From Marsupella aquatica (taxonomy: Eukaryota; Plantae; Marchantiophyta): 64,000 nucleotides of DNA. Every line of letters begins with the position of its first letter. Position 1 is the stretch's first letter. Below the pieces are notes generated by a model. The model saw only the letters and a list, made by a program, of their open reading frames with translations. It searched no databases and was not told the origin of the DNA. The stretch covers positions 14,356,684 through 14,420,683 of the forward strand of contig OZ316896.1 of the NCBI GenBank assembly GCA_973895155.1, in the 5' to 3' direction. A program made the translations under genes and the position numbers. Below are positions 7,915 through 62,045 of this stretch, in pieces.

Positions 7915-8080
7915 GTCCTCACTTATTTCCTTTATACCCATCACACAAAAGTAAATATAGGGTTTGTTTATTGGGTTTAGAAGAATAGTTTTAAATTTCT
8001 GTAGAAGAACATTAGGGTTTTTTAAATCCAATTTTGAAAATTCTAAGAGATGATAGGGTTTTAGAAATGAATTTTGGGAA
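7915..8080. repeat. AT-rich dispersed (MITE-like) repeat; inverted copy at about 35615-35780, partial copy at about 37915-37960
   Basis: cacttatttcc..tataccca tcacacaaaa...gtagaagaacattagggtttt...tagaaatgaattttg matches the reverse complement of 35615-35780. Confidence 0.7.
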
Positions 8081-9561
8081 TCCGCAGCTCAAATCAGATG
8101 CACATAAACCAAATGATCAGGCATCCTCTGGGCCATGCCTCTGTTCAATCCATAGGTCAAGATGTTGACATTTTTGCTCAAAAAGGTTGAGCATACAAAC
8201 GCTTTTTGCTCAATAAAATTTGGCTGTTTTGTGCATGTACTGAACAGAAAGGAAACGTCAGGCCTGCAAGGTTGAAACGGGGAGGGAGGAAATGCGTAAC
8301 AAGGGCAGGGCCGGCCATGGGAAGCAATGGTGGGTTGGACTAACCATTGGGTAGACTCTCAACCAATCAAATGCTTCAGTGGGCAGGAAGACAGGGTAGG
8401 GGGGTCAGTATAATAATTGAAATAGATTGGGGGTTACCTTTGTCATGATAACTTTTAGTTTGGGGGTCAGCTTAGTAAAAAGCTGTATATTTTAATTGAT
8501 GCAAGTCTTATGACTCATATGTGTCAATGGGATAATTATGCAATCAGATGCCCGATCAGATGTCTATCACAATATATATATATAATTAACATTAACTTAA
8601 CAAGCAGTTTGATAAGAAAATGATACACCTCAGTACAGTCAGGTATCCCTAGTTAAATTTAAGGGTACTAATGGTCTGGTTCTGGATAATGAGGCCTGTG
8701 GCTAGGTGGAAAACTGATTAATGGAAGTAAAAAAACCTACCAAAATTTTGCTAAAAGTGGCAGAGACTTATGGTGGTGGAATGTAGAAAAAACGAAGGTG
8801 GTGGAATCTAGCAAATCTTTGCCACTGAACAAATGCTTGGTAGGAGCAACTCCACCGGCCTACAGCACCACTTACCAGTTGATATTTGGGTGAGTGATGA
8901 GTTTGCTGGTGGGCTGAGTCCAAAAAGTCATGGAGCATCTGGCGGATACCCCCATCAGTGGACGCTAATAGACTGGGTTCTTGCAGTTCAACACAACATC
9001 TGCCATTTGTTGCCATAGCCATCCAGGTGAGCAGCAATGGCGTCATCCACTTGGTTTGGCAAGTCTCTGGAAGGAGCACTTGCAACTTGCACAAGGCACC
9101 GTCTGAGTCAGCGATTTTCCTGGGTTTTAGGGTGCTTAGAGCTAGTTTTTCTTACATTTAGAATGTTTGGTTGCTGGACTTTGGCCAGGGCATCACAGGT
9201 ACGTGTACCCAAGACATTCATACATTATTAGACAGAGCAGCAGGCCAGATAATCGCACTGAAGGTACTCATTAAAATTTTAGATAATGTTAGAGTATAAG
9301 CAAATTCTAGACATTGACAAAGCTTTGGCTTATCTAGGATATAGCTGGTCCATCCTGGTATGCAATTTGTTATTGTCTCATAGCAATTAGTGCAAGGACG
9401 TCTAGGTCATGTAAGCTCGATTGTGTTTAACAAGTTGGGGCCATCCTTCTTTTAGGCATCATATCCAATTTGCCAAATCTTTTGGCGGCAGTGAGACATT
9501 AAGATTGTTTGTTGGCAATTGCCACAAAGAAATTGCAGTAGCTCTTGCTGGTGCTGGAAAT
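8080..9561. repeat. About 1.5 kb dispersed repeat, copy A (probable decayed transposon); copy B at 38140-39721
   Basis: Colinear and highly similar from atccgca.ctcaaa..gatgcacataaacc to gtagctctt..t.gtgctggaaat. Both copies give the broken minus-strand peptide MLHDFLDSAHQ.THHSPKYQLVSGAVGRWSCSYQAFVQWQ. Confidence 0.9.
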
Positions 9562-18943: not shown

Positions 18944-19663
18944 CTACGCTCGAAAGCCCTGCTCTTCTTCCTTCTTGCTCCCGAAAAACCCACCAAACCA
19001 TGATGAGCCCCCACTACTGCTGCTGGTCGCCCCGCTGCCAGTCGTGGTGGTACCACTCTCCGACTCCAGCCTTTGGCCTTCATAAGTCCCCGTGGAAAAT
19101 TGTGGAACAGGAGGGGAGTCTGACATAGAAAAACTTGGTGCAGATTGGCCTGCTGGATAAGGCATTGTTGGCGCATAGGCCCCCCCAGCCCCAGCAGGTA
19201 TGGGCATCTGTGGCATGGGCTCTTCCAAAGGTGGGGGCTGCGCCATGTTTGCTGTCAACCGATTGAGCATGATTCCCGCGCCTTCAATGAGAGCCAGAAG
19301 GACACCTCCGAAAACTGCAGATCGAGCAGAAGACCTCATTCCTGCCCTAAGTTGGAGGAATCCACCGGTCGCTGCTCCTGCGGCGATGGAATTCCACGGA
19401 TCCTCCTTTTGTCTAAGATAGACCATCGAGCAATCGAAAGTGGAGAATAAACCCCCCCACACTGCAAAACTACCACCGATTCTAGGGGCATTGATCCGCA
19501 CTGCTTGAGTTCCCCCCAGGACCCTCTCCCCTCGAGGGGAATTCTTCATCCCCCTGATGAAATGCCACGCAGAGCCTCCCACCGCACCCATGCTGAACGC
19601 CCCGCCGATGTCATCCAGGATCCTGTCCGGACACGGCTCCCTCGCATGATCGGGAGTCCCCAT
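18944..19663 (-). CDS. TIM17: Mitochondrial inner-membrane translocase subunit TIM17 with long plant-type C-terminal extension
   Basis: DHAREPCPDRILDDIGGAFSMGAVGG, GGSFAVWGGLFSTFDC and RQKEDPWNSIAAGAATGG are Tim17 signatures. The coding region is a single exon. Confidence 0.97.
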   Translation of the reverse strand: MGTPDHAREPCPDRILDDIGGAFSMGAVGGSAWHFIRGMKNSPRGERVLGGTQAVRINAPRIGGSFAVWGGLFSTFDCSMVYLRQKEDPWNSIAAGAATGGFLQLRAGMRSSARSAVFGGVLLALIEGAGIMLNRLTANMAQPPPLEEPMPQMPIPAGAGGAYAPTMPYPAGQSAPSFSMSDSPPVPQFSTGTYEGQRLESESGTTTTGSGATSSSSGGSSWFGGFFGSKKEEEQGFRA

Positions 19664-20197
19664 CTCCTCCCCTCGATCCCAAACTCCCCGGCACCAGCAA
19701 GCGGAACCGTCTCCCTTCTACTAAACCCTCCCCGCTGCTCAAAATGCAGAACAGTCTCGCAAAGCACCAGGAAGCGAGCAATTCCAATACCAGATGGTGA
19801 TGCTCCTGCCTAGAGGCGCCCTGCTGCCGACGGAAGGCGACGACGATAATTGTCGACCAGTTTCAGAATCACGAGATCCCCTTCGCAAGTAAAGCAAAGC
19901 AAAGCTATAGCACTACAACCCTCTACAGTAGATTTGCCGTGCCTCCGGAAAACCTAAACGAAACTTCAAAGGGAGCGGAAACGTGCGATGTAACTGTAAA
20001 CCCCTCACCGTCAAAGCTTCATTGAGCATCATTGTGAGTACGATTTACACTGAAAACCCAAAACGCGAGAGACATGGACGTGGATCTCGAAGGAAGAAGG
20101 AGCGGACATGAATGAACAAACACAAACGACCTTCTTCTAGAGTGAGAATTGTCGCTGTTCCCGACGGAGTGACGGAGGAACGGCTGTAGCGTTTCTT

Positions 20198-25163: not shown

Positions 25164-28100
25164 ATGTCAGGGGCGGAGTTGGCTGTTGTCTTGCCTGTCT
25201 TGTCGACCGTCTTCAAAGCTGCGGGGCAGTTGGTTATGTCATTGCGGGAGGTGCGCGCCATAAAAAAGCACAACGTCGTCATTGCACAAGAAATCGAGCA
25301 CTTTATAAAGTCCTTGAATGAAAACATTGATCTGCTGAAGAAGCAGCGACCCAACAAGCAATCATGGGCGCTCGTTTTCTGCACTCACTCACATTGTCTT
25401 ATGCTTTGGGCAAATCAAATTGAAAGTGGCACAGTAAGTTTCAGACTGATGCAGGAGCCAGCTGCACTGTTAAGTTGCGATTCCCTTTTATTAACGTAAT
25501 GGGGCACTGACACTGTTGCGAGGATCCAACTTCATTGTTGCAAAGTTTCTTGCTACCTCTATATGGTAAGCTAACCCACCTCAACTTGGCATTGGTGGGT
25601 TTGCACGGGGCTTGGTAATCAGAATCATTGGAAACGGATTTGAATGGGGTCACCTGTTACTTGGAGGACAACTTGAAGAACGGGAGATTCCGTCGATTTT
25701 GGGATGCAAAGCAGATCAAGGACGAGCTAGAGAGGCTTCGACAAGATCTAATCAACAAGTTCCAAGTGAAGCTATTTGTCACTAACCTCGAGGTTCGTAT
25801 CTTTGGATACCTGGCAGACGACTCCTACTGATTTTTTCGTTAAGACCAATGAAAGCTTGCGGTGGACATAACTCAAAAGTTAGTAGGAGCATTAAGTCGG
25901 ATATAAATTCGAATTCCTTATATAGTTTGATGTGTGTAGATTGAATTTCCAGATGTGGCATCCGTCTAATAAATGGGCTGAACTCGTGCTGAGTTTGGAC
26001 AGGTTACCATCGATGCGGATAAGAAAATGGACGACTTTGGATTCAGGATGATGGAACTCTCATCGAACATGGCAAATAGTCGTACAGACACTGTTGAAAT
26101 CCGGAAGCTACTGGAACCGCTTGTCGTGGGAATGAAGAGGCAAGACGATAGGATTCAGTCCTTGGTTTCGATCGTCGTACAAAACGAAGCGAAAGTTGAA
26201 ACTTCATCAGACACGCAGAAATTTTTAGCAGATGTGAGAACTCCACAGCTCTGCCCAAGATTTGTGTCCGTTCGTTCCTATTGGCATGGCATCGAACAAA
26301 AGTGCCGGTTGGATGTCTAGCTTCTTACAGGTCTACATGTCTAGCTTCTTCGTGAGGTGTTGTCCGAGTTTCGCGCTGCTCAGCTTTCGACTAGGTTTTG
26401 GGCCCATTAAAGAGACCGTCAGACGATTACAAAACATTCTAGGCACTTGCGCATTTTTCCATCTAGTGAAAACCATAATTATTGATTTGGCTTTAGAGTA
26501 CCAACTCCACTCGACGAGCCATGCATGGTGAGTAGCTGCCTTAGTCTTGCTTCTAAATTGTTACACGGCCATTTGGTCGTCATTGTAGAGAGTCCTGACC
26601 TGGCTCATGTGTTTTGTTTTGGGTTGTATGAATGCAGGTGTTGGCGAGCTTACAAGATCTGGCTGCGGACGAAGGATCTTCGAGATCATCTTCTTCGAGA
26701 TCAACACCAGCAGAAGATGACTACGATGACTACCTCGATCCCATCACCGCCGAGCTGATGATTGATCCTGTCAAATGTGTTGATGGAGAAACTTACGACA
26801 GGCTCACGGTTTTGAAGAATAATCTGACTCAGCAAAAGCAATTGGTTATTTCGTGTGACGATGAATCTGTGCGGAGGCGCCTGTTCAAAAAGTTTCCGGA
26901 CGTAGAAAGACTGTTTTACAGACAGCGCAAGTCCTACCGGGATGAAGCCCTCGAATTAGCCGACACAGGCCATAGCGCCGAAGCATTGACAATGCTGAAA
27001 AATGTGTTGATGTGGGCCCCAGCTGACAAGGAGTGCCGCCAAAGGAGAGACGAACTGCAGCTTGTGCTTGATGCTGAAGAGAAGATGGTTCTGCATATGT
27101 CCAAGCTGGAGGAAACCAAACTGGAGAAACAGACGGTTGATATGTCCAAGATGGAGCAAAAGACAGTTTTGGACAGCAACCTGTTTCAGGTTGCCGATAG
27201 CAACCTGTTTCGGGTTGTGAGTAACATCCTGGAGAACAAGAAGGTTGTGAATCCATTAAATATTAATCCTTGCTTATTTTCAAATCCTTCCTAACCAAGA
27301 GATAGTTAAATAATTTTAGCGTCAAACTCTTATGTATATTTGGAAACTCATAGTTGACCAATGTTAGAAGTTTCCACTTCGGGAAACAAGAGGACAGATA
27401 TCCACAAGTAATTGGTTGTGTTTCAATTTTCATTAGTCCTGTTGGATTCCAATGAATCGTTTGCATGTGTTCTAGAAGAAATTAGCTCGAACAGCTGCAA
27501 GTGTAGGGGGTCAGAATGCTCTGAAAGTGGTTTCTCGACTTTGTTCAGGGTAGGACTATACCTCAGAATTCAAGAGCAAGCATTTCGAGGAACGTCTGCC
27601 ATACGAATGTAACTAGTTACGAGGGGGGAGGGGGAGAGACCCAGCAGCTTCTAGGCCTCTATGACTGGAGAAGGGCGGAACCTCAACCCGATGAGGAGGA
27701 GGTTCCCACACATTTGAACAAAAGAACATGCGGGCACTTTCTGGTCACATCCACAGACAAGTTGTCTGCCAAATATACAGAAATTGTACGGGATCATAAT
27801 GACGTCGGCGCAATTCAGGGGAACCGGCCTGTCCCTGACCAAGGGCTTCTGTACTACTTCGAGATCTCGCTGAAAGATCGAGGTGAGAAGGGATATATTG
27901 CCATTGGGTTCACCGATGAGAACTTCAACGTGAGTCGGCAGCCAGGATGGGAGCCGAACAGTTATGGATACCACGGGGATGATGGAATGCTCTACCACGG
28001 GGCGGGTAGGGGGGAGAAATTTGGTCCTACTTTCACCACAGGCGACACTGTTGGTGCCGGCATCAACTATGCTGCGCAGGAGTTGTTTTTCACGAAGAAC

Positions 28101-29486
28101 GGCAAGCTAGTTGGCACAACATTCAACGACATGAAGGGGCCAGTATATCCCACTGTGGGTATGCACAGTCGGAACGAAGAGGTGGAGGTGAATTTTGGCC
28201 AGAAGCCCTTCACATTTGATGTGGCTGGTCTAGTTCAGGAGGAGCAGGAACGTATCCAGAGCTCTATGTTACGATTCAACGACGAACTCAAATTCAAGAA
28301 GCAAAAAGTTCCCACACATTTCAACACCAGCACATGCAGGCCCTTTGTGGTCACATCCACAGACAAGTTGTCTGCCAAATATACAAAAATTATACGGGAT
28401 CATGTCAAAGACGTAGGCGCAATTCAGGGGAACCTGCCTGTCCCTGACCAAGGGCTTCTGTACTACTTCGAGATCTCGCTGAAAGATCGAGGTGAGAAGG
28501 GATATATAGCCATTGGATTCACCGATGAGAACTTCAACATGTGTCGGCAGCCAGGATGGGAGCCGAACAGTTATGGATACCACGGAGATGATGGAATGCT
28601 CTACCACGGGGCAGGTATTAGGGACAAATTTGGTCCTACTTTCACCACAGGCGACACTGTAGGTGCTGGCATCAACTATGCTGCGCAGGAGTTGTTTTTC
28701 ACGAAGAATGGCAAGCTAGTGGGCACCACATTGAACGATACGAAGGGGCCATTGTATCCCACTGTGGGTATGCACAGTCAAAACGAAGAGGTAGAGGTGA
28801 ATTTTGGCCAGAAGCCCTTCATATTTGATGTGGCTGGTTTAATCCAGGAGGAGCAGGAACGTATCCATAGCTCTATGTTACGAATCAACAACGATCTTGA
28901 ACTCAAGAAGCAAAAAGTTCCCACACATTTCCACACAAGAACATGCGGGCACTTTCTGATCACATCCACAGACAAGTTGTCTGCCAAATATACAGAAATT
29001 GTACAGGATCATGACGTCGGCGCAATTCAGGGGAACCTGCCTGTCCCTGACCAAGGGCTTCTGTACTACTTCGAGATCTCGCTGAAAGATCGAGGTGAGA
29101 AGGGATCTATAGCCATTGGATTCACCGATGAGAACTTCAACATGTGTCGGCAGCCAGGATGGGAGCCGAACAGTTATGGATACCACGGAGATGATGGAAT
29201 GCTCTACCACGGGGCAGGTATTAGGGACAAATTTGGTCCTACTTTCACCACAGGCGACACTGTTGGTGCTGGCATCAATTATGCTGCGCATGAGTTGTTT
29301 TTCACGAAGAATGGCAAGCTAGTCGGCACAACATTCAACGACACAAAGGGGCCATTATATCCCACTGTGGGTATGCACAGTCGAAACGAAGAGGTGGAGG
29401 TGAATTTTGGCCAGAAGCCCTTCATGTTTGAGGTGGATGCTCTCATTCAGGGCCTCCAGAGGCCATTGGAAAGTGATCATGATTGA
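25164..29486 (+). CDS. Chimeric protein of about 1040 aa: MLKL/UND-like four-helix bundle, coiled coil, degenerate U-box, TPR-like hairpin, 3x SPRY (RanBPM-derived). Exons 25164-about 25370/25433 (junction unresolved), 25623-25792, 26003-26233, 26638-27216 (or 27243), 27549-29486
   Basis: Junctions GAG|gttcgt..gacag|GTT, GAT|gtgaga..tgcag|GTG and GTT|gtgagt..ttcag|GGT are all phase 0. The 55 codons from 27549 are open and in frame with the 590-aa triple-SPRY ORF. U-box-like DYLDPITAELMIDPVKCVDGETYDR; SPRY QPGWEPNSYGYHGDDG occurs three times. Confidence 0.8.
27702..29450 (+). repeat. Intragenic tandem triplication of the SPRY module (units start at 27702, 28308, 28917; periods 606 and 609 bp)
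   Basis: gttcccacacattt (VPTH) begins each unit. The units are near-identical with in-frame indels only. Confidence 0.97.
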
Positions 29487-30895
29487 AAGTACAATTTCCC
29501 GTGAAAACCCAAAAAGCGAGATCTCGAAGGAAGAAGGCGTGGACATGAACCAGCAAACATAATTACATCTCTGTATGTATCTACACTCCAATTCGAGATC
29601 AAACTACTTCGTCGACCCCGTAGCAATTTTTTTGTATAGGGTTCATTTGATTGAGCTACGTCTACCGAAATGGAAAGCCTTGGGCACGAAAGGGTTATGT
29701 CAAACAACCAACGGACAGACACCTCATGAGTCTAATAACAAATCTTATAAACGAGACTAAAGGTGTCGTTCTCTCAGGTCGAGTAATTTCTGAAGCTGAT
29801 CTTCTTACTACTATAACAAGAGTCGCACCAAAAATGGTGGATAGCCCAGTTTACAAACTCACTTTTGGAGGGAACATTCTCTCACCATTGGATTTATGCT
29901 AACATTCTCTGACCATTGTATTTATATTTTCTTTTATCTAGGCCTTTCATTATTCAAAAAACAATCTCCCCTAAACCAAAGGAGACAAAACAAAATATTT
30001 TGGTATGGCACAAAGATTCTCTAGGGAGATATGGGATACTATTCCATGTGAGTACCATGTGTTGTCTTTGGAATAGGGGCACTTGGGACACCATTGTGAT
30101 TTTCTTCCCACCCTCGACGGCTTTTCTCTCCTCAAGATCTTTTCTCACCCGGCTCACGGTGCCTCACTTGCCATTATTGAAACTGTATAAGTACTCTGGG
30201 TGACCCGTAGTACTCACTTCCAAAATGCTAATGTCGCATCTGTAGACGCGCGCCCTTTTGCAGCCCTCCGATTGGGAGCTCAATTATTTTTGTCCGTTCA
30301 TCAAATGAGTCGATCTATGGTTCAAAATTCAAATCTTTTTGAGATCTACGTCTCAGAAAAACCAGATTATTGGATGATGAAAATGAGGGAGAAAATTGAT
30401 AAAAACAGTCCAAACAATCTCATTGTTGGAGACCAAAAATTTGAATGTTCAATTTTTGGGCAGGTCGGGCAGCGACAAGTATTCCAATGGACTTCCCGTT
30501 GAGAAGTTATTGTCGTCCGTTTGGCGTTTCCCTTTAGTATTGCAACCATCGCGGCTCACGCCTTGGGCTCACCCTTGGCCCCCACGGAGACAACACTCCC
30601 CTCATGTAGGCTTCTGGAGACCTGTCACCCCCGGACCAACTTTGGTACTCTATATTTTGCCCTCAACTTGGATTCCAACCCGATCGCATGGGCATGCAAC
30701 TAACTTGCTATGCCCATAACTTTCTAGTTACATGTCCGTCAACGAAGTGCCTTAGCCCGTTGTGATTGGGCCGACACGGTGCTCATCCCCGGGCACTCAG
30801 ATCCCGTTGCCAATCACGGGTCCCTAACGGCTCCACATGTGCCACACCGTATCTCATGCACCAAACATCCGATGCGCATGAAGTAAACTTCTTTG

Positions 30896-33029: not shown

Positions 33030-34425
33030 CCTCAATAAGTGTACATTTGCATTTATTGATAAGTGCATGCCCTTTTTTAGTAGAGTAAAAAATACACCTA
33101 TAGCGTAGGACACCAAATTCACGGCAGGGTGTCAGGGAGTGTGATACACGTCACAAGACTGCTCAATCAAACAAAGTGACGTAAATCATGCCCACTCTCC
33201 AACAAGTGCAAATTTTTGGGGTTTGCACTTATCAAGTAGTCAAAACCTGCTCTCTCCTCTCTTCCGCGCTATGGTGTTGTGCTTTCTTCTCGTCTCTTGG
33301 TGTTCACGTTTGGCGAAGAAGGAGTTTTCCCGATTCTAGTTTGTGCGTGATTTTTGCCGATGAGAGCGTTTCTGCCTTCGTCGGTAGATCTCCTGGTCTC
33401 TTGGTGTTCACGTTTGGCGAAGAAGGAGTTCTCCCGATTCTAGTTTGTGCGTGATTTTTGCCGATGAGAGCGTTTCTGCCTTCGTCGGTAGATCTCCTGG
33501 TTTTGTAGTCCTTTCGACCTTTCGCCGCAGCGGATTAGAAGGTCTGAGATATCGTTGTCCCTCGGTGGCTCCACGACTGTTCTCCGGATTCTGTGTATTT
33601 ATTTTCTGGTGGTGCATCTCCTCTGTTCGCTTTGCGTCTCCAGTCTCGTCCGCTCAGGTTTCTTTCTCTTCCCTTCTTTTTCTTCCTACTTCTTCCTTCC
33701 TTCCTTCGGCTCTTGTTGTCCACGTTTCTCCGTTGGGAAGTCGACCTACGGATTCTGTGTTGGCCGAGTTAATGTGCGAATTGAGACAGAAAGGATGGCC
33801 GATGATGTGATGCGGTAGCGAGACGCAGGCCAGGGCAGGATAGATAGGGTGGGTAGGACAGAAATGGATAGGATAGGACAGGACAGGACAGCAGAGGAGA
33901 GGAAAACTGTAGGCCCGTGTGCTGTTCCATTCCATGCTACCACAATTTGCGCTGCTTTTCAGAGAAGAAAAGAACCTGCCTGGTGAGTGCCTGTAACATG
34001 ACTGGTGGTGGGCTAGGGTATTTGTCGACTATACTTGTCGTGGCCAAGGACGCCTGCTGCGGGTTCCAATTTGACTCCAATTTCGAGAAGCAAGCTTGGT
34101 GCTTGCACCGATATAGCAGAAATTATTAGGGTGCTGTCGATATGTTCAACTCTAACCCAGACCGTTCTACCTTTGTCTAGAATACCTCACTGAGTGATTT
34201 TGAAAATTTGATGTACTAGCAGCGCAACCCTTTTCGTTTCGGTGATCTCGCACGGTGGTTACGCTGTTGAGCACAGGTGCTGGAAACCGTAAAAAACCCG
34301 GCGTTCTCGGGCCGCTTTGCTCCCATCCGTAGAGCTCGAGATCATGATCTAGGGGATTATTGATTCGGCGGGCGCGGCTTGACAACCTCAGCCTCCTACA
34401 GTAGCTGTTTGGCATTTGCAATAAC
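33030..34425 (+). promoter_or_regulatory. Duplicated RanBPM upstream region / 5' leader (paralogous to about 48360-49815), with an internal 104-bp tandem duplication at 33293-33500
   Basis: Colinear similarity: gtacatttgca..., cttccgcgctatggtg, gatgatgtgatgcggtagcgagacgcagg, (gacag)n tract, ggcatttgcaataacATG. Confidence 0.85.
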
Positions 34426-35082
34426 ATGGGGGGAGACCAGGTGGTTTCTTCCACGATTGCAGGGGGAGGGGGAGGGGGAGGGACGCAGCAGCTTCTAGGC
34501 CTCTCTGACTGGAGAAGGGCGGAACATAAACCCGAGGAGGAGGAGGTTCCCACACATTTGAATTCGAGCACAAGCGGGCTCTCTGTGGTCATATCTACAG
34601 ACAAGCTCTCGGCAAAATACAGCGGGCGTGCAAAGCATGGCAATGATATCGGCGCAATTCAAGGGAACCGGCCTGCCCCTCACCAAAGTCGTCTGTACTA
34701 CTTCGAGATCACGCTGAAAGATCGAGGTCTGAGGGGATGTATTGCCATTGGGTTCACCGATGAGAACTTCAAAATGAGTCGGCAGCCAGGATGGGAGCCG
34801 AACAGTTATGGATACCACGGAGATGATGGACTGCTGTACCACGGGGCGGGTAGGGGGGAGAAATTTGGTCCTACTTTCACCACAGGTGACACTGTAGGTG
34901 CTGGCATCAACTATGCTGCGCAGGAGTTGTTTTTCACGAAGAATGGCAAGCTAGTGGGCACCACATTGAACGATACGAAGGGGCCATTGTATCCCACTGT
35001 GGGTATGCACAGTCAAAACGAAGAGGTAGAGGTGAATTTCGGCCAGGAACCCTTCATATTTGAAGTGGATGCTCTCGTTTAA
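34426..35082 (+). CDS. Truncated RanBPM paralogue: N-terminus plus a single SPRY domain (218 aa), lacking LisH-CTLH-CRA
   Basis: Intact ORF with the same ATG context as 49816. It aligns to residues 1-218 of the full gene and stops at ...FEVDALV*, where the parent continues LVQEERERR. It could be expressed or a young pseudogene. Confidence 0.85.
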   Translation: MGGDQVVSSTIAGGGGGGGTQQLLGLSDWRRAEHKPEEEEVPTHLNSSTSGLSVVISTDKLSAKYSGRAKHGNDIGAIQGNRPAPHQSRLYYFEITLKDRGLRGCIAIGFTDENFKMSRQPGWEPNSYGYHGDDGLLYHGAGRGEKFGPTFTTGDTVGAGINYAAQELFFTKNGKLVGTTLNDTKGPLYPTVGMHSQNEEVEVNFGQEPFIFEVDALV

Positions 35083-35174
35083 GCTCGAAACGTGAGATCT
35101 CGAAGGAAAAAGGATTGGACATGAATCATCAAACATAAGTACATCTGTATATCTATGTATACTACGAGTCGAGA

Positions 35175-35345
35175 CCCAACTCAACTGGGTTTTGCTTACT
35201 GGGTACACTATATACCCAGTAGTACATTAAATACCCAGTCATTCTACATCCAACTATCTTAACCCAACTGGGTTTTGGCTTACTGGGTCCAACTATCTTA
35301 ACCCAACTGGGTTTTGGCTTACTGGGTACACTTACTGGGTACATT
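35175..35345. repeat. Short tandem/dispersed repeats (caactgggttttggcttactgggt)
   Basis: The motif occurs three times, including an exact duplication of about 39 bp. Confidence 0.75.
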
Positions 35346-38139
35346 AAATACCCTGTATGTTAGGGACCAACTGAAAAGCACCCCCTCCCCAACCCTGATG
35401 GGATAATCTTCCCTAAACAGCAGATTTGACAGCTGTAGATTAAGATCTTGAAACTCCAATTGCCAACTTAATAAGGAGTCAACTACTTGATAATCTCTCT
35501 CTCAGGGGCCTCACTCTAAATGGGTGTCTCGTAACCCTTTTTTAGTTATTAAACATACCAAAAAAATTGAAGAGTAAATCTATCCTTATATTTTTGAAAT
35601 ATTCTATAAAAAAATTCAAAATTCATTTCTAAACTCTTATCTTTTCTTATAATTCTCAAAATTGTACTTTAAAAATCTTATGTTCTTCTACATAAATTTA
35701 AAAGTATTCTTTTCAATCCAATAAACAAACTCTCTATACTTATTTTTTGTGTGATGGATAAAAAGGAAATAAGTGAGAACCCTAGGATATCTCTATAATC
35801 TCTCCCATATATAGATCCAAATCCAACAGCCAACCTAATAAGGTGTCAACTAATGTATAATCTCTCTAGAATAATCTCTTCCATATATAGATCCTGGAAC
35901 CAAAAAACTCTGTTCCTGAAATCCAGATAGAGTTATAGTGAGTGGGTTAGACTTGAGTCTACACCAAGAATTTTACCTTCCAATTCTTATGACTCCATTT
36001 TCGAGTCAAATTGTGTGTGGATAAGGCGCTAATTGATCAACAGCAGATGCTTATTAATCAATTACCCGACCCAAGCCTAGTTTTAGGCGGTTGAGAAGCT
36101 CGTCATATGACGCGCAGTGAAATGCCTGGTATAGGGGACTGGGGTAGCTAGCCCAATGAGCCAGTCCCCGGACTAATTCGGCAGTTAGGTAGTGCCCTCG
36201 CTTTGGTACAAAAGGTCCGAAGGCACAGTCCGAACTGCGTTCTATACCATGTCCCATTAGCCCACACGTTCAAAATGGCCTTGCACGAACTGTAGGCAAC
36301 ACCAGTGAGGGTCCACTTCAGTCATCTGGACAGAGGTGGACGTCAGAGAGCCCGTAGTACTCGCCTACCTGAAGGGTGAAAACTTGAAAAATATTTTTTC
36401 TTTTCCTACTTGGCACAAGGGGCTTTCTATAATCCCCCAATTGACAAACCCCCCAAATCTTTTCTTGAAATATCGTAATGTAACAAAGTGAAACACCTGT
36501 TTTCGCTCTTGTTCAATCCGTTGGTTAATATATACATAGATTGGCAATTATTCCAGCCTATCGCAAATAGTGAATGGGTTGGACCTGACTTTCTAGATTT
36601 TCCTACTGGGTTTGGTCAACACCCAGTTACAATAGATGCTCTTAGGGAATCAAGCTAGGTATAGAGTTGGAGTCTAGGCTGCTCTTAGGGAAGCTAGAGT
36701 TGGAGTCTAGGCTGAACAGAGTAAAGCTTGAAGCCTCTAGACCGTGACTGTAGGGCCCTACCAAAGCAAATGTGCGTGTAAAGAAGATATATATAAACAT
36801 TTACAACTATAATAAGGGATCCTGCCTTTCTTCATCCTTCATCCCAATACAAAAAAGCTCTTGGGCGGGAAAGATCCATAGCTGTCGAATTTGATTAGCT
36901 ATTTTCCCTGATCATTGATGAAAAAAATGTGCACCTTTGACACATATGTGCTTCCTGCTGCCCCATAAATGCCCCGGCCCGACTCCCTATGGGCGGCCCT
37001 CCTTGCACAATGCAACGCACTGGCATAGGGCTCGTGATGGTATATTATGTATGACATGAATAAATGAGTATTATTTTTGTCATTTCTCCATTCCCTATTC
37101 AAAGAATGGGAAGAGGGAATAAATTTTATTACATTTTATTATCCTCTCCTCTACTCACCTTCAAAGAAAGATAGTTGGGGAGGGTACCCTCCATTGAAAG
37201 CCACACTTTCGAGCCTAGTATACTCTAGACTGAAACCTCTAACTGCAACTAGTATCCACAAGTGTTGGGGTGAGGCAAGAGGTGGGGAAGTACCTTGGGC
37301 CTAAGCAAAGCTCAGGCATTCAGGCTAGTTAATACTATAATTTGCAATCCAAATTGACCAATCATGACCTATTTGGTAGCTCAGGTGAAGCCAGAGGCCG
37401 TGAGTGATTTCTCTGGTACCAAAAAAATTTGATCAGGTCTCTTCATCTGTTACATAACCAACCTTCCTCAAAGTTACTACAAAAAAAATTTGAATTGCTA
37501 GCTTTCCAAAAAGTGTTTAATGTATTTTTCACATAATGATTATATTTGGGGACATGTAAATCACTCAAACCCATAAACTGCCGAAACAAACTTTTAAAGT
37601 TCTCCTCACATGTCATGTTTCTAGTTGACAACTTTTTAGCTTGTAGTAATTGTGAATAAGGTTCAAAAACATGGTGGGCCTTTCATGTATTTCTCACACA
37701 TATAAGGACTTCATTTAGTGACACTGTGAATAAGTTTCAAAAACGTGGGACTCCGTGGGTCTTTCATGTATTTCTCACATACAGCTTTTTACTATCCTGT
37801 CCCCCAAAGTAAGCTAAATTATTAACTTACCCCCAAAATTATTTTAATTGCTAGGTTGCCCCCCCCATTCTGTATATATGAGTTACTTTCACTGTTTTAG
37901 TTAACCCCAGCTCATGTTCTATAGAAGAACATTAGGGTTTTACAAATGAATTTTGGGAATATTTTGAGAATATTCTAGAAATATAGTCGTAGAAAAATAG
38001 TTCAAAAATTATATTCCCCTTATTTTTTAGGGTGTTTAATAGCTAAAAATATCGAGCATTTTATGAGACCCCCTTTAGAATGAGGCCCCCAAGGAGCATC
38101 CTGAAGCAATTGCTGCTATTTATGGTGGATGGTAAATTA

Positions 38140-39721
38140 ATCCGCAACTCAAAACCGATGCACATAAACCAAACGATCAGCCATGCTCCGGGCCATGCCT
38201 CTGTTCAATCCATAGGTCAAGATGTTGACATTTTTTGCTCAAAAAGCTTGAGCGTACAAACGCTTTTTGCTCAAGAAATGTTGGCTATATTCTGCATGTA
38301 CTCAACGAAAAGGACACGTCGGGCCTGCAAGGTTGAAAGTTTGGTGGGGAGGGAGGAAATGCGTAACAAGGGCAGGGCCGGCCATAGGAAGCAATGGTGG
38401 GTTGGACTAACCATCGGGTAGACTCTCAGCCAATCAAATGCTTCAGTGGGCAGGAAGACAGGGTAGTATTACCCTGATATGGTTTGGGGATCAGTACAAT
38501 AATTGAAACAGATTGGGGGTTGCCTTTGTCATGATACCGTTTAGTTTGGGGGTCAGCTTAGTAAAAAGCTGTATATTTTAATTGATGTGAGTGTTATGAC
38601 TCATATGACGTCAATGGGATATACAATCAGATGTCTGTCACAATTCATACATATATATAATTAACATCAAATTAACAAGCGGTTTGATAAAAAATGATTG
38701 CCCAACATACCCATAGAAATAATTTCAGAACCATGACTGTAGTGATCAAGCTTGTGGGAAATACCCATACACCTCAGTATTGTGATGTAGGCTAATTTTT
38801 TACGGTCACATGTCCCTAAATTTAAGGGTACTAATGGTCTGGTTCTGGATAACTAGGCCTGTGGTTAGCTAGGTGGAAAACTGATTAATGGAAGACAAAA
38901 AACCTACCAAAATTTTGCTAAATGTGGCAGAGACTTATGGTGTTGAAATGTAAAAAAAAGGTGGTGGAATCTAGCAAATCTTGCCACTGAACAAATGCTT
39001 GGTAGGAGCAACTCCACCGGCCTACGGCACCACTGACCAGTTGATATTTGGGTGAGTGATGAGTTTTCTGGTGGGCTGAGTCCAAAAAGTCATGGAGCAT
39101 CTGGAGGATAGCCCCATCAGTGGATGTAGTAGACTGGGTTCTTGCAGTCCACCACAACATCTGCCATTTGTTGCCATAGCCATCCAGGTGAGCAGCAATG
39201 GCGCAATTTGTGTCATCCACTTGCTCAAACTTAGCCAGAAGTGGCATGTGCAAGGCACCATCTGAGTCAGTGATTTTCCTGGGTTTAAGGGTCCTTGGAG
39301 CTAGTTTTTCTTACATTTAGAATGTTTGGCTGCTGGACTCTGGCCAGGGCATCACACTTACCTGTGCCCAAGACATTCAGACATTATTAGACAGAGCAGC
39401 AGGCCAGATAACTGCACTGAAGGTACTCATAAAATTTTAGATAATGTAAGAGTATAAGCAAATTCTAGACATTGACAAAGCTTTGGCTTATCTGAGATAT
39501 AGCTGGTCCATCCTGGTACGCAATTTGTTATTGTCTCATAGCATAATTAGTGCAAGGACCTCTAGGTCATGTAAGCTTGATTGAGTTTAACAAGTTGGGG
39601 CCATCCTTCTTTTAGGCATCATATCCAATTTGCCAGATCTTTTGGCGGCAGTGAGAAATTAAGATTGTTTGTTGGCAATTGCCACAAAGAAATTGCAGTA
39701 GCTCTTGGTAGTGCTGGAAAT
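38140..39721. repeat. About 1.5 kb dispersed repeat, copy B (see 8080-9561)
   Basis: Colinear match to 8080-9561 with small indels. Confidence 0.9.
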
Positions 39722-40940: not shown

Positions 40941-41218
40941 TTATTTAGTTTTACAATGTGAAGCCAAATGGGTTTTAATTATGTACATTTCTATCGATTG
41001 ATTTTTTCAAACTTGTAAACAATTAAAAAATAGAAACATTTTAATATAAAACATTGATAAATCTTTGATAAACACTAGTACATTTTACCTCCTTTTTCCG
41101 ATTCTCTCCACATCGGACGCCTTTGTAAAATAAAATTTGAAAAACCATATATCCGATACTACTAGCATCGCAACATGCCATTTTAATAGTATCGGATATC
41201 GACAATCGGACTTCTATC

Positions 41219-41372
41219 GGAAAGTCCGATGGTGGGAGAATGGGAAAGTCCGATGGTGGGAGAATGGGAAAGTCCGATGCTAGGAGAATGGGAAAGTCCG
41301 ATGGTGAGAGAATGGGAAAGTCCGATGCTAGGAGAATGGGAAAATCCGATGCTAGGAGAATGGGAAAGTCCG
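41219..41372 (+). repeat. 24-bp tandem array (ggaaagtccgatgctaggagaatg) x about 6, left part of the CACTA
   Basis: Direct inspection; this array produces the spurious ESPMLGEW and SDFPILL ORFs. Confidence 0.95.
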
Positions 41373-42224
41373 AAGCAATCAAAATGGGATATGCATTTCA
41401 GCGGACGCGACATGCTCAGGTCACCCATCTCTTCCTTTAATTGGGTTTCTACTTTCATTTGGAACTATGAGCTATATAGGTGCCCATCTCCCTTGACATG
41501 TGAACTCTTCAAATTTTCTCAACTAATTGGTCACCCATCCCAATTGCTATTCCTCCAACATGAGCTTAACTTTGTGGTTCTTATTCCTTACATTGTACAT
41601 GCAAGCTTAGCACTTTTGTTGTTTGACTTAGAGTGTTTGGGGATTTTATGCACTTGTGAGTTTACTAAGACCCATAATTTGGACCCATTCTTGATCCATT
41701 TTTCTCTATCATGAGATTAGATCTTTGCATCAAGTGACCTATTCTAGTTACCCTATTACATTCCCCTAGGAGAAACCAATAGAAATCTGGCACGGGTCAT
41801 TCATCGATAGTAAAGCCCTCCTTCATTAGATTTGATATGGGATAATTATGGCTTATTAGTTATGGATGATATTTTGGTCCTTCCAAAGCCTCAGCGTCAA
41901 TGGCTCCTGATTGTCTCATCTTTTATCAACTATGTTGTTGTTGGACTTGCAACAAAGACTACATGGGACAAACAACCTCCTTCTAGATGATGTATTTTGG
42001 ACTTGGCATGTTGAGCACATATTTCCGTAAGGGAACAATATGTTGGGTCTTGGAATGAGGCAAAAACAACACTCAAGTCCATTTGCCTCAAGTATGAAGT
42101 TATTCATGCATGCAAGAATGATTGCATCTTTTGGGAAGAGTATGTCGGTGCAACCACATACCCCATCTAACACATCAAAACTTTTCATTCTAACACAATC
42201 AAAAATTTTCTTTTTGTCATAACC

Positions 42225-42400
42225 AGACTTTCCCATACTCCCAGCATCGGACTTTCCCATTCTTCTAGCATCGGACTTTCCCATTCTTCCAGCATCGGAC
42301 TTTCCCATTCTTCCAGCATCGGACTTTCCCATTCTTCTAGCATCGGACTTTCCCATACTCCCAACATCGGACTTTCCCATTCTCCCAACATCGGACTTTG
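42225..42400 (-). repeat. 24-bp tandem array x about 7, reverse complement of the 41219 array
   Basis: catcggactttcccattcttctag units. Confidence 0.95.
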
Positions 42401-42789
42401 CCATGTTAGCACAATCGGATATAATATCCGTTCTTATTAACTACGGAAAGTTTCCGATCAATATTGTAACGCACATCATTTTCGTTACAAAAAACATCGG
42501 ACATATCAATCAAAGTTTCTGTTGAGGGATCCGATATGTTTTCTAACGGATATGATCCGTTTTTTAACGCATCGGAAAGGTTCCGTTGTCAATTATATCG
42601 GAAATGAAGATATCCAAAGCCGAGAGTATGGCATATTGCCATTTTTTGATAATCGAAATTTCCGATGCTAAAAGAATCGGACGCCGATTGTTCGCAAAAA
42701 TTGAGCATCGAAAATCAGCTTAATATGTACTAGTGAAACATCAAAATGATAACTTTGTTTTACTAAATGACATCTCTTTCTTTGTATTT

Positions 42790-48000: not shown

Positions 48001-49815
48001 TGTCATTTACTGAAGGTTTTGGCTCATTGCACTTAATTTGTTTATTACTTCACTTTACATGGAAATTCTGTGTTTCTCACTTTCAACTGAAAAACTTTAT
48101 TTTTTAATGTTTTCTCCAAGCCCAATGAATTGTTTTGCTCATTGGCTCCCAAACAATGTTTCAAATAAGATTTATTTTTTTTGTTTGAATTCTAGAATAA
48201 TTGCGCAAAGTCCAATGGCACTACGGTACAATAGAGTACAGTACAAACGACACTGGATAAGTGCAAAGTAAATTGCTCTTGCTTGCACACCTCAAACAAT
48301 GTTAGCAATTACTGTTTAACGGACAGGTCAATAAACTCGCTCCCAAATTATGACAACATTCTCAGTGTACATTTGCACTTATCACTAACAGCAATTGCAT
48401 TTATTGGTAAGTGCATGCCGTTTTTTAGTAACTTACAAAATACACTTTTAGGCCTAGGATGCCAAATTATGATGCGAGTCAAACAAACGCAAACTTTACC
48501 AATAAATGCAAAGTTTTAGGGGGTTTGCAGATCAAGTAGTGCAACCACGGCTTACTGCATACCGGATCCGTTGTCCCGAGTGTGTGCACTTAGAAAGGGC
48601 AGACTACTACAACACTGTACGAAGCGAACCCTATAGGGACACGCACGCTTGGACTCAGAGCAGACGCACGTACTCATGTACCGTATGCGTACCCACCCTC
48701 TACAGTACAGTACTCTAAACGTGTGCGACCCTTCTTTCGTCCTTCTCTCCGTCCTTCGGTTCTATCATTCCTCTGTCCTCTGCTCCTCAGCCTCCTCTCC
48801 CGTCCTCTGTCCTCTCCTCTCCTCTGCTCTCCCTCTTCCGCGCTATGGTGTCGTGCTTTCTTCTCGTCTCTTGATGTCCACGTTTGGCGAAGAAGTGGCT
48901 CTCCCGATTCTGATTTGTCCGTGCTTTTTGGCCGATTAGAGACTCTCTGCCTGCGTCGGTGTATCTCCTGGTTTTGATGTCCTTTCTGCCTTCGGCCGCA
49001 GCGGATTAGAAGGTAGACGATATCGGTGGCGTTTACGATTGTTCTCAGGATTCTGTGTCCGTGTGTGTTTGCCGGTGGTGCCTCTGCTCTGTTGACGTTG
49101 CGTCTCCAGTCTGGTCCGCTCAGGTTTCTTCCTCTTCCGTTCTTCTTCTTCCTACTTCTTCCTTCCTTCCTTCGGTTCTCTTGGCGTCCACGTTTCTCCG
49201 TCGGGAAGTCGTCCTCCGGATTCTGTGTTGGCCGAGTTAGTGTGCGAATTGCGCCAAGGCAGAAGGCTGACAGGCAGGAGGGCCGATGATGTGATGCGGT
49301 AGCGAGACGCAGGGCAGGATAGATAGGGTAGGCTAGGGTGGGACAGAACTGGATAGGACAGGACAGGAGAGGAGACGAGAGGCAACTGTAGGCCGGTGTT
49401 CTGTTCCATGGTACCACAATTGCGCTTCTTTTCAGAGAAGAAGAGAACCTGCCTGTAACATGACTGGTGGGCTAGGGTATCTGACGACGATTCTTGTCGT
49501 GGCCGAGGAGGCCTGCTGCGGGTTCCAATTTGACGGCCATTTTCGAGAAGCAAGGTTGGTGCTTGCTCTGATGTAACAGAAAGTATTAGGGTGCTGTCGA
49601 TGGTTGCCCTTTTCATTTCGTGATCTCGCATGATTGTTACGCTTTTGAGCGCAGGTCCTGGAAACCGTAAGAAACCCTAGCCTTCCAGGTCCATGTTCTC
49701 CGGCCGCTTTGCTCCCACCCGCAGAGCTTGAGATCATCATCCAGGGGGTTATTGACAGTTCAGGGGGCGCGGCTTGGCAACCTCGGCCTCCTAGCTGTTT
49801 GGCATTTGCAATAAC

Positions 49816-51207
49816 ATGGGGGGAGACCAGCTGGTTTCTTCCACGATTGCAGCTGGAGGTGGAGGGGGAGGGACGCAGCAGCTTCTAGGCCTCTATGACT
49901 GGAGAAGGGCGGAACCTAAACCCGAGGAGGAGGAGGTTCCCACACATTTGAATACCAGCACATGCGGGCTTTTTCTCGTCATATCCACAGACAAGCTGTC
50001 AGCGAAATACACCGGGCCTGGAAATCATGGCAATGATGTCGGCGCAATTCAGGGGAACCGGCCTGCTCCTCACCAAAGGCTTTTGTATTACTTCGAGGTC
50101 ACGCTGAAAGATCGAGGTCTGAGGGGATGTATTGCCATTGGATTCACCGATGAGAACTTCAAAATGAGTCGGCAGCCAGGATGGGAGCCGAACAGTTATG
50201 GATACCACGGAGATGATGGACTGCTGTACCACGGGGCGGGTAGGGGGGAGAAATTTGGTCCTACTTTCACCACAGGTGACACTGTAGGTGCTGGCATCAA
50301 CTATGCTGCGCAGGAGTTGTTTTTCACGAAGAATGGCAAGCTGGTGGGCACAGCATTCAAAGACACTAAGGGGCCATTATATCCTACTGTGGGTATGCAC
50401 AGCCAGAACGAAAAGGTGGAGGTGAATTTCGGCCAGAAACCCTTTATATTTGATGTGGATGCTTTAGTTCAGGAGGAGCGGGAACGTCGCCAGAGGTCAG
50501 TGGAAAGTGTGCCACTGGCACTGAGTGTGAGCCACAGCGTTGTGCGGACATATTTACTTCATTATGGATATCAGGACACGCTCACAGCTTTCGACGTGGC
50601 AAGTGGCGGTACCTTTCGACCCACGGTGGTTCCCCCTGCAGACCCTTCGGTATCTGGGACCGAAGATGATACATCTGAATATGCGCTAGAGCAACGGAAA
50701 ATTCTGCGTCGGCTTGCGAGAGAAGGGGACATAGATGGTGTGTTCACCAAACTACGAGAATGGTATCCTGAGCTACTCCAAAACGGTGTGTCGCAGATCA
50801 ATTTCCCTCTTCATTGCCAAAAATATATAGAATTGGTTAAAGCAGGATCTTTGGAAGCTGCAGTGAATTATGCTCGAACAGAGATGGCGAATTTCTTTGG
50901 TATCTCTCCTCTAGAAGATGTGCATTTGCAGGACTGCCTAGCGTTACTTGCTTATGAGCATCCTGAGAAATCTCCAGTTAGCTATTTGTTGCACGTAGCA
51001 CAGCTGGAGGCCGTAGCGGACGCTGTTAATGCAGTTGTCTTAGCCACGAACCCATCAAATCATGGTAAACCACCTCAATCAGCTCTGGAAAAGTTGTTGC
51101 GACAGCTTACTGCTTGTTTAATGGAAAAACGGCAATTGAATGGGGGCCAAGGAGAGATATTCACGTTGCAGCGGGTTCTTCAAGGCGGGAAAGATGGTGG
51201 GTGGTAG
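49816..51207 (+). CDS. RanBPM: Ran-binding protein M / RanBP9-10 homologue (GID1-like scaffold of the CTLH E3 complex): SPRY-LisH-CTLH-CRA, 463 aa
   Basis: SPRY (YYFEV, QPGWEPNSYGYHGDDG, FFTKNG, LYPTVG, VNFGQ), LisH (SVVRTYLLHYGYQDTLTAF), CTLH (RKILRRLAREGDIDGV, LHCQKYIELV) and CRA (ALLAYEHPEKSPV, VADAVN, SALEKLLRQL). Confidence 0.96.
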   Translation: MGGDQLVSSTIAAGGGGGGTQQLLGLYDWRRAEPKPEEEEVPTHLNTSTCGLFLVISTDKLSAKYTGPGNHGNDVGAIQGNRPAPHQRLLYYFEVTLKDRGLRGCIAIGFTDENFKMSRQPGWEPNSYGYHGDDGLLYHGAGRGEKFGPTFTTGDTVGAGINYAAQELFFTKNGKLVGTAFKDTKGPLYPTVGMHSQNEKVEVNFGQKPFIFDVDALVQEERERRQRSVESVPLALSVSHSVVRTYLLHYGYQDTLTAFDVASGGTFRPTVVPPADPSVSGTEDDTSEYALEQRKILRRLAREGDIDGVFTKLREWYPELLQNGVSQINFPLHCQKYIELVKAGSLEAAVNYARTEMANFFGISPLEDVHLQDCLALLAYEHPEKSPVSYLLHVAQLEAVADAVNAVVLATNPSNHGKPPQSALEKLLRQLTACLMEKRQLNGGQGEIFTLQRVLQGGKDGGW

Positions 51208-54940: not shown

Positions 54941-55429
54941 GAGACACTATTAGGTCGCCTAATATGTAAGTTACATTTGTTACTCTACATTAGAGTACAT
55001 TGAATGAGAGCATATGCATGCAAGAAGTCTTACATTATAATGAGACCCGACTTGTGCTAAACATACAAGTGTTACTACATAACCTTTTTACCCCAACCAT
55101 AGCCAAGCTATGACAATTTATTTAATCTCTACCAATTCTCCTCATTGAAGGGGTTCATGAAAAACTAGAAATAGGACTTAGATTATATTCTATTGGGCCT
55201 AGCTCATATATGTACGTAGTGTACATATATAAGTTTGGTTGTACTTAGGGTTAGTACGTAGCAAAGTCATGTGCACCACCAACAAGTGTTAGGGCATCAG
55301 GGAACTATGCCCCCAAACGTACAAAACTAATCCCAACTATGTCCCAAACTAGGGTCCCACAATGGCATGTAATATTAATTGGCCTCATTCTTATGTCTAA
55401 ATACCCTTGGTAGCCGGTTCCACAACTAG

Positions 55430-61826: not shown

Positions 61827-61830
61827 CAAG

Positions 61831-62045
61831 TGGTTGACCTTGCCACCCAACACCCTCACCAATCCTACCCATGCCTAAGTGCCCTTGGTGCCCGAACACC
61901 TCAATGGGACTTGAGCAAGGAACTTCGTGCCCCTTGCAACCCCAGCGCCCACTCCCATACAAAGCCGCACTTGCTTCCTAACACAATCGTCGTTCAATGA
62001 TCTTCATTGTTTGCACAAGAAACCAATTACTTTGGTAACTAAGTA
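61831..62045 (-). repeat. Part of the 5' LTR next to the PBS; related copies in the opposite orientation at about 62605-62826 and 63490-63690
   Basis: gaccttgccacccaacaccctcacc.atcc on plus at 61836, and its reverse complement ggatcggtgagggtgttgggtggcaaggtc at about 62791-62820, with a more diverged copy at about 63660-63690. Confidence 0.75.

Follow-up and report, generated by a model that had tools for sequence, protein, structure and literature searches.

A 64,000-nt stretch of Marsupella aquatica DNA (contig OZ316896.1, positions 14,356,684 to 14,420,683; hereafter the window) was analysed for a gene with an unusual domain order on the forward strand. Judged by homology it is a real five-exon gene, in which a predicted four-helix bundle and coiled coil are followed by a U-box, one predicted tetratricopeptide repeat (TPR)-like hairpin and three tandem SPRY domains. 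Downstream of it lie a truncated copy of RanBPM and an intact RanBPM gene, the likely source of the SPRY domains (Table 1). We show here the order of the exons, the domains that they encode, the protein family to which the gene belongs and the local origin of its SPRY domains, and weigh the function that these might serve.

Table 1. Features of the window (positions are those of the window)
Feature	Position	Strand	Basis
Tim17 single open reading frame (ORF) gene	18944-19717	-	Pfam PF02466
Exon 1 (start codon, helices 1-2 of four-helix bundle)	25164-25374	+	aligns with family N-termini; tblastn with P0138, E 4e-14
Ancestral intron-1 donor position, TT instead of GT	25375-25376	+	25 homologues and read-through model P0128
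Exon 2 (bundle helices 3-4)	25623-25792	+	CAG acceptor at 25622, phase 1; 58% to P0138
Exon 3 (predicted coiled coil)	26003-26233	+	phase-0 GT-AG; boundary common to Marchantia model; long helices in model of a relative
Exon 4 (linker, then U-box and TPR-like hairpin, ending in a short tail with repeats)	26638-27216	+	alternative phase-0 donors 27243, 27246; read-through stop 27294
U-box without loop-2 Ser-Pro motif	26710-26907	+	Pfam, fold match, proline loss
Single TPR-like helical hairpin (predicted)	26929-27072	+	VIA-align to TPR proteins, model residues 98-145, Z 6-7.6, root-mean-square deviation (rmsd) 1.2-1.9
Inferred intron 4 (GTGAGT ... TTTGTTCAG), 37% GC	27217-27548	+	sequence only
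Exon 5 (51-codon linker, three tandem RanBPM-derived SPRY domains)	27549-29486	+	Pfam, alignment
SPRY repeat 1	27702-28223	+	84% amino acid identity to local RanBPM
SPRY repeat 2	28308-28832	+	3' part identical to truncated RanBPM copy over 120 nt
SPRY repeat 3	28917-29435	+	alignment to RanBPM
Truncated SPRY-only RanBPM copy	34426-35082	+	3' flank common with exon 5
Intact single-ORF RanBPM (SPRY-CTLH/CRA), likely SPRY source	49816-51207	+	alignment, tree

Gene structure

A preliminary description, made from the DNA letters and their ORFs, had joined five ORF fragments into one gene. Its three downstream junctions (25792/26003, 26233/26638 and 27216/27549) were read directly in the sequence as phase-0 GT-AG, and exon 5 was in frame with the upstream exons as proposed, exons 2-5 forming a single open frame to the stop at 29486. 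Exons 1-4 matched a family of proteins (designated by P numbers) in order, with E values of 3e-123 to P0138, the nearest full-length relative (54%), and 7e-59 to the fern protein P0007. The single gene is thus upheld by homology and by the collinearity of exons 1-4 with the family, except at the junction of exons 1 and 2, which is considered below.

Exon 4 appears to be spliced to exon 5, although its exact donor is ambiguous because the exon-4 tail is internally repeated; the three candidate donors (Table 1) are all in phase 0. The first methionine of exon 5 is at codon 147, within SPRY repeat 1, and the 146 codons before it contain no ATG. Since neither the RanBPM ATG nor the in-frame stop just ahead of it is present, SPRY repeat 1 could be produced only from an upstream exon. 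An origin of the exon-5 acceptor in the RanBPM 5' untranslated region was considered and set aside as unshown, since shuffled sequences aligned equally well in both local and anchored alignments.

It could be argued that there is no fusion, that a four-exon gene stops at 27294 and that the SPRY ORF is a separate, decaying triplication of RanBPM. P0138 indeed has no SPRY, the 5' 75 nt of exon 5 have no significant homology to anything tested, and the exon-4 tail repeat runs on past the 27216 donor. We nevertheless regard this as very unlikely: exon 5 retains a frame of 645 codons and a conserved core despite its long ATG-free start, which has lost the ATG of RanBPM together with the in-frame stop preceding that codon, and the same layout is found in a moss and in ferns. 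An in-phase GTRAGT donor and a pyrimidine-rich acceptor would be expected by chance at about 0.045 and 0.17, respectively, with thresholds chosen post hoc.

The donor of intron 1

The motif W-A-[IL]-[ED]-S-L crosses the joint between exons 1 and 2 unbroken, with no insertion or deletion, in all 25 aligned homologues, and the Marchantia polymorpha model P0128 reads through intron 1 at exactly that codon; together these fix a phase-1 donor after 25374. In the window the ancestral donor position reads TT, not GT. Use of the GT one base upstream with the natural acceptor at 25622 gives a frameshift and a stop after 6 codons, and the strongest nearby donor, GTAAGT at 25433, is likewise out of phase with 25622. 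In-frame alternative donors are present at 25425, 25437 and 25473.

Because the ancestral donor reads TT, the allele as assembled may be null. A very young pseudogene or null allele, in which intron 1 is spliced out of frame, is a serious possibility that falls somewhat short of even odds, and it would be compatible with either of the functions discussed below. Against it, no other lesion occurs in the 3,129 nt of coding sequence, the TT could stem from a one-base assembly error next to a run of T, and the in-frame donors offer another way round it. The TT is likely a one-base lesion or an assembly error; what the assembly shows may be a null allele of recent date, an error in assembly or a case of cryptic rescue.

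The four-helix bundle and coiled coil

Structural comparison of the N-terminal region was carried out with the predicted model of P0127, a Marchantia relative. Residues 1-126 found their best match among 48,161 chains in the coiled-coil (CC) domain of potato Rx (Z 13.8, rmsd 1.9, 105 residues aligned), followed by IncA (Z 11.9), the Sw-5b SD (11.1), the NRG1 CC-R (10.0), MLA13 (8.8) and MLKL (8.5). For residues 1-150 of P0124, Atlas language-model features scored 0.90-0.93 to the MLKL_N, MCAfunc and RPW8 clusters. No Pfam MCAfunc match was obtained in the window exons or in nine relatives, but Atlas features of the bundle gave 0.92-0.93 to MCAfunc/MLKL_N clusters, and a weak Pfam match to MLKL_N was seen in the relative P0135 (E 0.009). 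Although hydrophobic, the family's N-termini are varied, and the coiled-coil region forms long helices in the model of a relative.

The four-helix fold, like the TPR hairpin, is a model prediction. The MLKL/CC bundle class includes cell-death executioners, and cell killing was seen with about 70% of the CC domains assayed from non-flowering plants (bioRxiv 2022.10.19.512840). As this class spans both executioners and the N-termini of PUB13-type ligases, the fold alone is not decisive.

The U-box and TPR hairpin

The U-box that had been noted in exon 4 was recovered by Pfam (PF04564, 30.6 bits, cut-off 21.4). An AlphaFold2 model of exon 4 built with 50 sequences (predicted local distance difference test (pLDDT) score 88) placed it at residues ~25-90, and the U-box fold of OsCIE1 matched this model with Z 7.7, rmsd 2.2 and 63 residues aligned. 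A TPR had also been proposed; Pfam detected none, and what stands is one predicted TPR-like hairpin at residues 98-145 of the model. A Foldseek search with the exon 4 model gave no match at E<=0.001.

Of the 31 family-conserved columns of the U-box and TPR, 29 are retained. The loop-2 proline is a gap in the window protein and in its three nearest relatives, whereas 93% of the 74 other sequences have Pro in that column. The Trp that precedes it is likewise missing in all four, which form a clade with a Shimodaira-Hasegawa-like approximate likelihood ratio test (SH-aLRT) value of 97. In a Riccia relative, the Ser-Pro that is missing here aligns with the Cys-Pro of PUB12. In CHIP, the loop-2 proline touches the S-P-A motif of the ubiquitin-conjugating enzyme, or E2 (PMC2396629). 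Since the three nearest relatives also lack the proline, its loss is a trait of the sub-branch, and the sequences suggest that the U-boxes of this sub-branch are not active ligases. The U-box in this sub-branch is likely a brake or decoy instead, and U-boxes can themselves be targets of effectors (PMC7958378).

A family with swappable tails

A search with exon 5 retrieved a 977-residue Adiantum protein with a U-box and three SPRY domains, the front of which is collinear with exons 1-4. A profile search of 1.84 billion representatives returned 67 proteins at E<=1e-30, and the U-box-TPR module was found in at least 78 proteins. When longer proteins were searched with exon 4 through a word index, none of 1,385 candidates matched, a failure of sensitivity, the family having been found via exon 5 and the profile; of two metagenome scans one was empty and the other returned 3 loci, which matched only 26-32 residues of generic U-box. 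Taxonomy was sampled for 19 proteins, 18 of which had names, all from liverworts, mosses or ferns (Riccia, Marchantia, Ceratodon and Adiantum among them).

The members share a predicted four-helix bundle and coiled coil, a U-box and one TPR-like hairpin, and then a variable domain. Among 69 proteins scanned the tails comprised kinase, ARM, TPR, EF-hand, WD40, ZZ, ubiquitin-like and SPRY domains; P0141 carries ARM repeats, and P0139 ends in ARM-like repeats as judged by eye. SPRY domains were present in 11 of the module-bearing proteins, 7 from Adiantum capillus-veneris, 1 from A. nelumboides, 2 from Ceratodon purpureus and 1 other. The two Ceratodon proteins represent one gene and have an extra ubiquitin-like end. 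P0124, a 943-residue ORF on a 3,003-nt contig, has the same front and triple-SPRY layout; it probably derives from a spliced mRNA. As separate observations, P0157 joins the U-box-TPR module to a long run of calmodulin-like EF-hands, and a hydrophobic C-terminal segment resembling a membrane tail anchor occurs in 17 of the 78 module-bearing proteins, P0138 included.

The architecture had been described as lineage-specific, a view that did not hold, the same layout being present in the moss Ceratodon (KC19_4G163100) and in the fern Adiantum (GOP47_0027315 and relatives); bundle, U-box, TPR and three SPRY domains follow one another in moss P0276 and fern P0007. The preliminary description knew of no described plant protein with this architecture, and a literature search on U-box and SPRY domains in plants and bryophytes came back empty. 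We found no paper describing the architecture, although supplementary lists, the Trenner 2022 classification and the supplements of the bioRxiv paper on proteins with nucleotide-binding and leucine-rich repeat domains (NLRs) could include the family. The supplement files of PMC11579444 gave no match either, the Marchantia PUB table (Table S2/Fig. S1) perhaps lying outside them. The family is apparently undescribed, and the window gene is one tail variant of this large family.

In trees, the front of the window gene grouped with relatives that lack SPRY, namely Riccia P0129 in an 11-row tree (100/99) and P0160, P0138 and P0181 in a 68-row tree (97). The approximately unbiased (AU) test rejected the grouping of all SPRY-bearing fronts in one clade (p 1e-6, 11 rows). 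For the U-box-TPR module tree, 7 of 75 rows were omitted as redundant or partial. Parts of the family also occur with NLR modules: in Riccia fluitans P0199 the family bundle and coiled coil stand ahead of hydrolase-NB-ARC-LRR, and in P0167 the U-box-TPR module stands behind hydrolase-NB-ARC. Both are gene models and possible mis-joins; if right, they would be unusual NLR architectures. In Adiantum, adjacent locus tags indicate a tandem array of six SPRY members.

Origin of the SPRY domains

Exon 5 contains three SPRY domains by Pfam (PF00622, E 6e-73), and at 86-88% DNA identity to RanBPM (49.8-51.2 kb) and its truncated copy (34.4-35.1 kb) they do derive from the neighbouring RanBPM, as the preliminary description had suggested. 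Their amino acid sequences are 80-84% identical to plant RanBPM (35-57% for fern family SPRYs) and match RanBP10 (5jia) at E 9e-44. In the tree they fall into one clade together with the RanBPM of the window and the truncated copy; among named relatives, that of Calypogeia fissa is nearest to the RanBPM itself, followed by Marchantia and Riccia. Forcing the window SPRYs together with the fern and P0124 family SPRYs was rejected (p 0.0016; AU p 0.006 with moss added), but the same constraint with the truncated copy allowed in the clade was not (p 0.12), all of these comparisons involving long branches. Redundant or partial rows were omitted from the trees, 13 of 51 in one and 20 of 51, with 5 added, in the second.

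The SPRYs being recent local copies that do not group with those of moss and fern, the triple-SPRY layout was either built anew or overwritten at this locus. Each of the three repeats is most closely related to the other two (synonymous divergence 0.09-0.13), they include RanBPM flanking helix sequence, and the 3' non-coding flank of exon 5 is 81% identical to that of the truncated copy. The 120-nt identity of repeat 2 to the truncated copy is likely due to gene conversion. A tail ancestral to land plants that was overwritten by conversion from the adjacent RanBPM copies would fit the three SPRYs of moss, fern and window gene, the evident conversion with the 34-kb copy, the p of 0.12 when that copy is included and the grouping of moss and fern SPRYs in one long-branch group (SH-aLRT 93). 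The kinship of the repeats, their flanking helix sequence, the shared non-coding flank and the clustering of the front with SPRY-less relatives speak against such overwriting, which we consider unlikely; fresh capture with triplication is the simpler reading.

Changes relative to RanBPM fall in 4 of 52 invariant columns as against 38 of 122 other columns (p 0.0008), which supports constraint on the SPRY fold. They cluster at codons 27-33, 62-65, 76-78 and 103-105, which may form the binding face. Among the repeats themselves, changes are concentrated in codons 5-33. SPRY loops determine binding specificity (PMC5071358). Positive selection was not shown; a candidate signal in the N-terminal loop (11 non-synonymous and 1 synonymous change in codons 5-30, counted by hand) was not significant.

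Further observations concern RanBPM. The duplication that gave the truncated copy covers the RanBPM upstream region as well as the SPRY (33389-35181 against 48859-50469, 81-90% identical), and the copy ends by a stop right after the SPRY (218-residue ORF). P0001, an ENA protein, stands apart from the family and has two SPRY domains, the first of which falls with moss RanBPM in the tree; it is another tandem RanBPM offshoot.

Other features of the window

A segment upstream of the Tim17 gene (20023-20125) resembles, at 72%, the stretch 29474-29562 where exon 5 ends. A 1.5-kb direct duplicate (8079-9561 and 38139-39721, 85-91% identical) holds ORFs of 127-130 codons with no Pfam match. On the reverse strand, 54500-58600 resembles a decayed long terminal repeat retrotransposon, with weak matches to reverse transcriptase-RNaseH, zinc knuckle and aspartyl protease, at or below cut-off except for the zinc knuckle. 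A 24-nt minisatellite forms two inverted arrays about 0.9 kb apart (41215-41389 and 42226-42419), and nested inverted repeats of up to 560 nt, 74-77% identical, occupy 61829-63694.

Comparison with known systems

PUB13/PUB45-type ligases (MCAfunc/UND, U-box and ARM) share with the window gene a U-box preceded by an N-terminal helical bundle, in the window gene one predicted to be of the MLKL/MCAfunc class. The window gene differs in its additional coiled coil and TPR hairpin, in having SPRY rather than ARM (no ARM occurs in the five exons) and in lacking both the loop-2 proline and a Pfam MCAfunc match; the consulted part of PMC8049495 does not name SPRY as a partner domain. NLRs of the CC type that carry integrated domains (Rx, MLA, CC_OG3/MAEPL and RPW8-type) resemble it in the predicted N-terminal CC-like bundle, in a C-terminal copy of a host domain (the SPRYs nest with the local RanBPM), in tandem arrays and in the recombination of family modules with hydrolase-NB-ARC-LRR genes. 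In contrast to these, the five exons contain neither NB-ARC nor LRR, for which the gene model leaves no room, and the middle is occupied by the U-box-TPR module. Plant and animal MLKL have a four-helix bundle with a helical brace or coiled region, match in Atlas features (0.93) and find a parallel in family members that end in a kinase; the window gene, however, has a U-box and SPRYs and no C-terminal pseudokinase.

TRIM5 and TRIM21 combine an E3-type domain, a coiled coil and a C-terminal SPRY with variable loops. The coiled coil and C-terminal SPRY of the window gene are alike by analogy only, as it has a U-box instead of a RING, no B-box match, another domain order, three RanBPM-type SPRYs and an N-terminal bundle. 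CHIP/STUB1 has a U-box, TPR and a helical dimer-type region and was the top Atlas match for exon 4 (0.88, a lead only), but its triple TPR is N-terminal and its U-box C-terminal; in the window protein this order is reversed and a single hairpin is present. RanBPM/RanBP9, the GID/CTLH scaffold, is the direct source of the SPRYs, from which the window gene differs in lacking LisH/CTLH/CRA and in its altered surface loops. The window protein is not a TRIM, NLR, MLKL or CHIP protein; its U-box domain makes it a PUB, but its E2 site is not intact.

Proposed function

Our preferred reading, to which we assign a probability of about 0.45, is that the gene encodes an immune sensor free of NB-ARC and equipped with a swappable bait. 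The three SPRYs would serve as bait or receptor for a partner protein of foreign or host origin; clustering mediated by the coiled coil would release the MLKL/CC-like bundle, which would oligomerise and damage membranes, with the U-box-TPR module acting as a brake or second decoy. The bait role, the binding and the cell death are what we infer. The preliminary description had offered, as one possibility, a cell-death bundle coupled to SPRY sensors, and this gains support from the predicted fold and the Atlas feature matches. Tail swapping, recombination with NLR parts and the tandem array also count for the sensor, as do the triple-SPRY layout of P0276, P0007 and P0124, the retention of 29 of 31 conserved U-box/TPR columns and the sparing of RanBPM-invariant columns by the SPRY changes. 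The TRIM-like ligase proposed alongside it is weakened because the U-box and those of the three nearest relatives lack the E2-binding proline.

Alternatively, the protein could be an ordinary PUB-type ubiquitin ligase, in which an UND/MCAfunc-like bundle interacts, the coiled coil dimerises and the SPRYs select substrates in the manner of TRIM proteins. A four-helix bundle with a U-box is the oldest PUB head (PMC8049495), Atlas sets the bundle near MCAfunc, most family U-boxes keep the loop-2 proline and E3 complexes use the SPRY fold to bind substrates (PMC9180843, PMC5071358). The window gene and its three nearest relatives are without that proline and the Trp before it, however, and NB-ARC/LRR shuffling and tandem arrays fit immune genes better, which makes an ordinary ligase improbable to us. 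Oligomers are expected under both functions. The likelihoods given for function, allele status and fusion address separate questions and do not sum.

Several points weigh against the sensor. The bundle was folded for P0127 only, in a model with a mean pLDDT of 59 (55-90 in the bundle region) that gave no Foldseek match at E<=0.001; a Z near 13 is within the generic range for helical bundles, and MCAfunc-type bundles also head ordinary PUB13-type ligases (PMC8049495). The splice junctions are those read from sequence and homology, the intron-1 donor is damaged, and the in-frame rescue donors would add 17-33 residues or remove 15 at the start of helix 3, where none of the 25 homologues has an indel. 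Among the repeats, selection gives no clear picture (pN/pS 0.45, with p from 0.006 to 0.05 depending on the model): the synonymous excess falls where repeat 2 matches the truncated copy, and SPRY codons 1-100 hold 15 non-synonymous against 5 synonymous changes by hand count, near neutral, with p 0.10 in a further test. We also know of no pathogen protein that binds plant RanBPM.

More broadly, seed-free plants may possess their own class of NB-ARC-free receptors, with an MLKL/CC-like executioner, a U-box-TPR restraint and interchangeable host-derived baits, of which this liverwort would have rebuilt the moss- and fern-type triple-SPRY bait from the adjacent RanBPM; we put this forward as a doubtful extension. 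The baits would then include kinase, calmodulin-like, ARM, WD40, TPR and SPRY domains, and the RanBPM/CTLH complex would be a recurrent pathogen target. That this front carries three SPRYs in an old and again in a young version is a clear case of domain capture, either convergent or refreshed, in which the donor gene still lies nearby. The value lies in the family and this re-capture more than in the possibly null allele, and intact members in Marchantia and Ceratodon make the sensor reading testable there. Were the family only one of ligases, it would still add to the PUBs a group not yet classified, whose substrate modules are unusually mobile; if its anatomy has been read correctly, plant innate immunity would have a branch that has been overlooked, one in which integrated baits work without an NLR switch.

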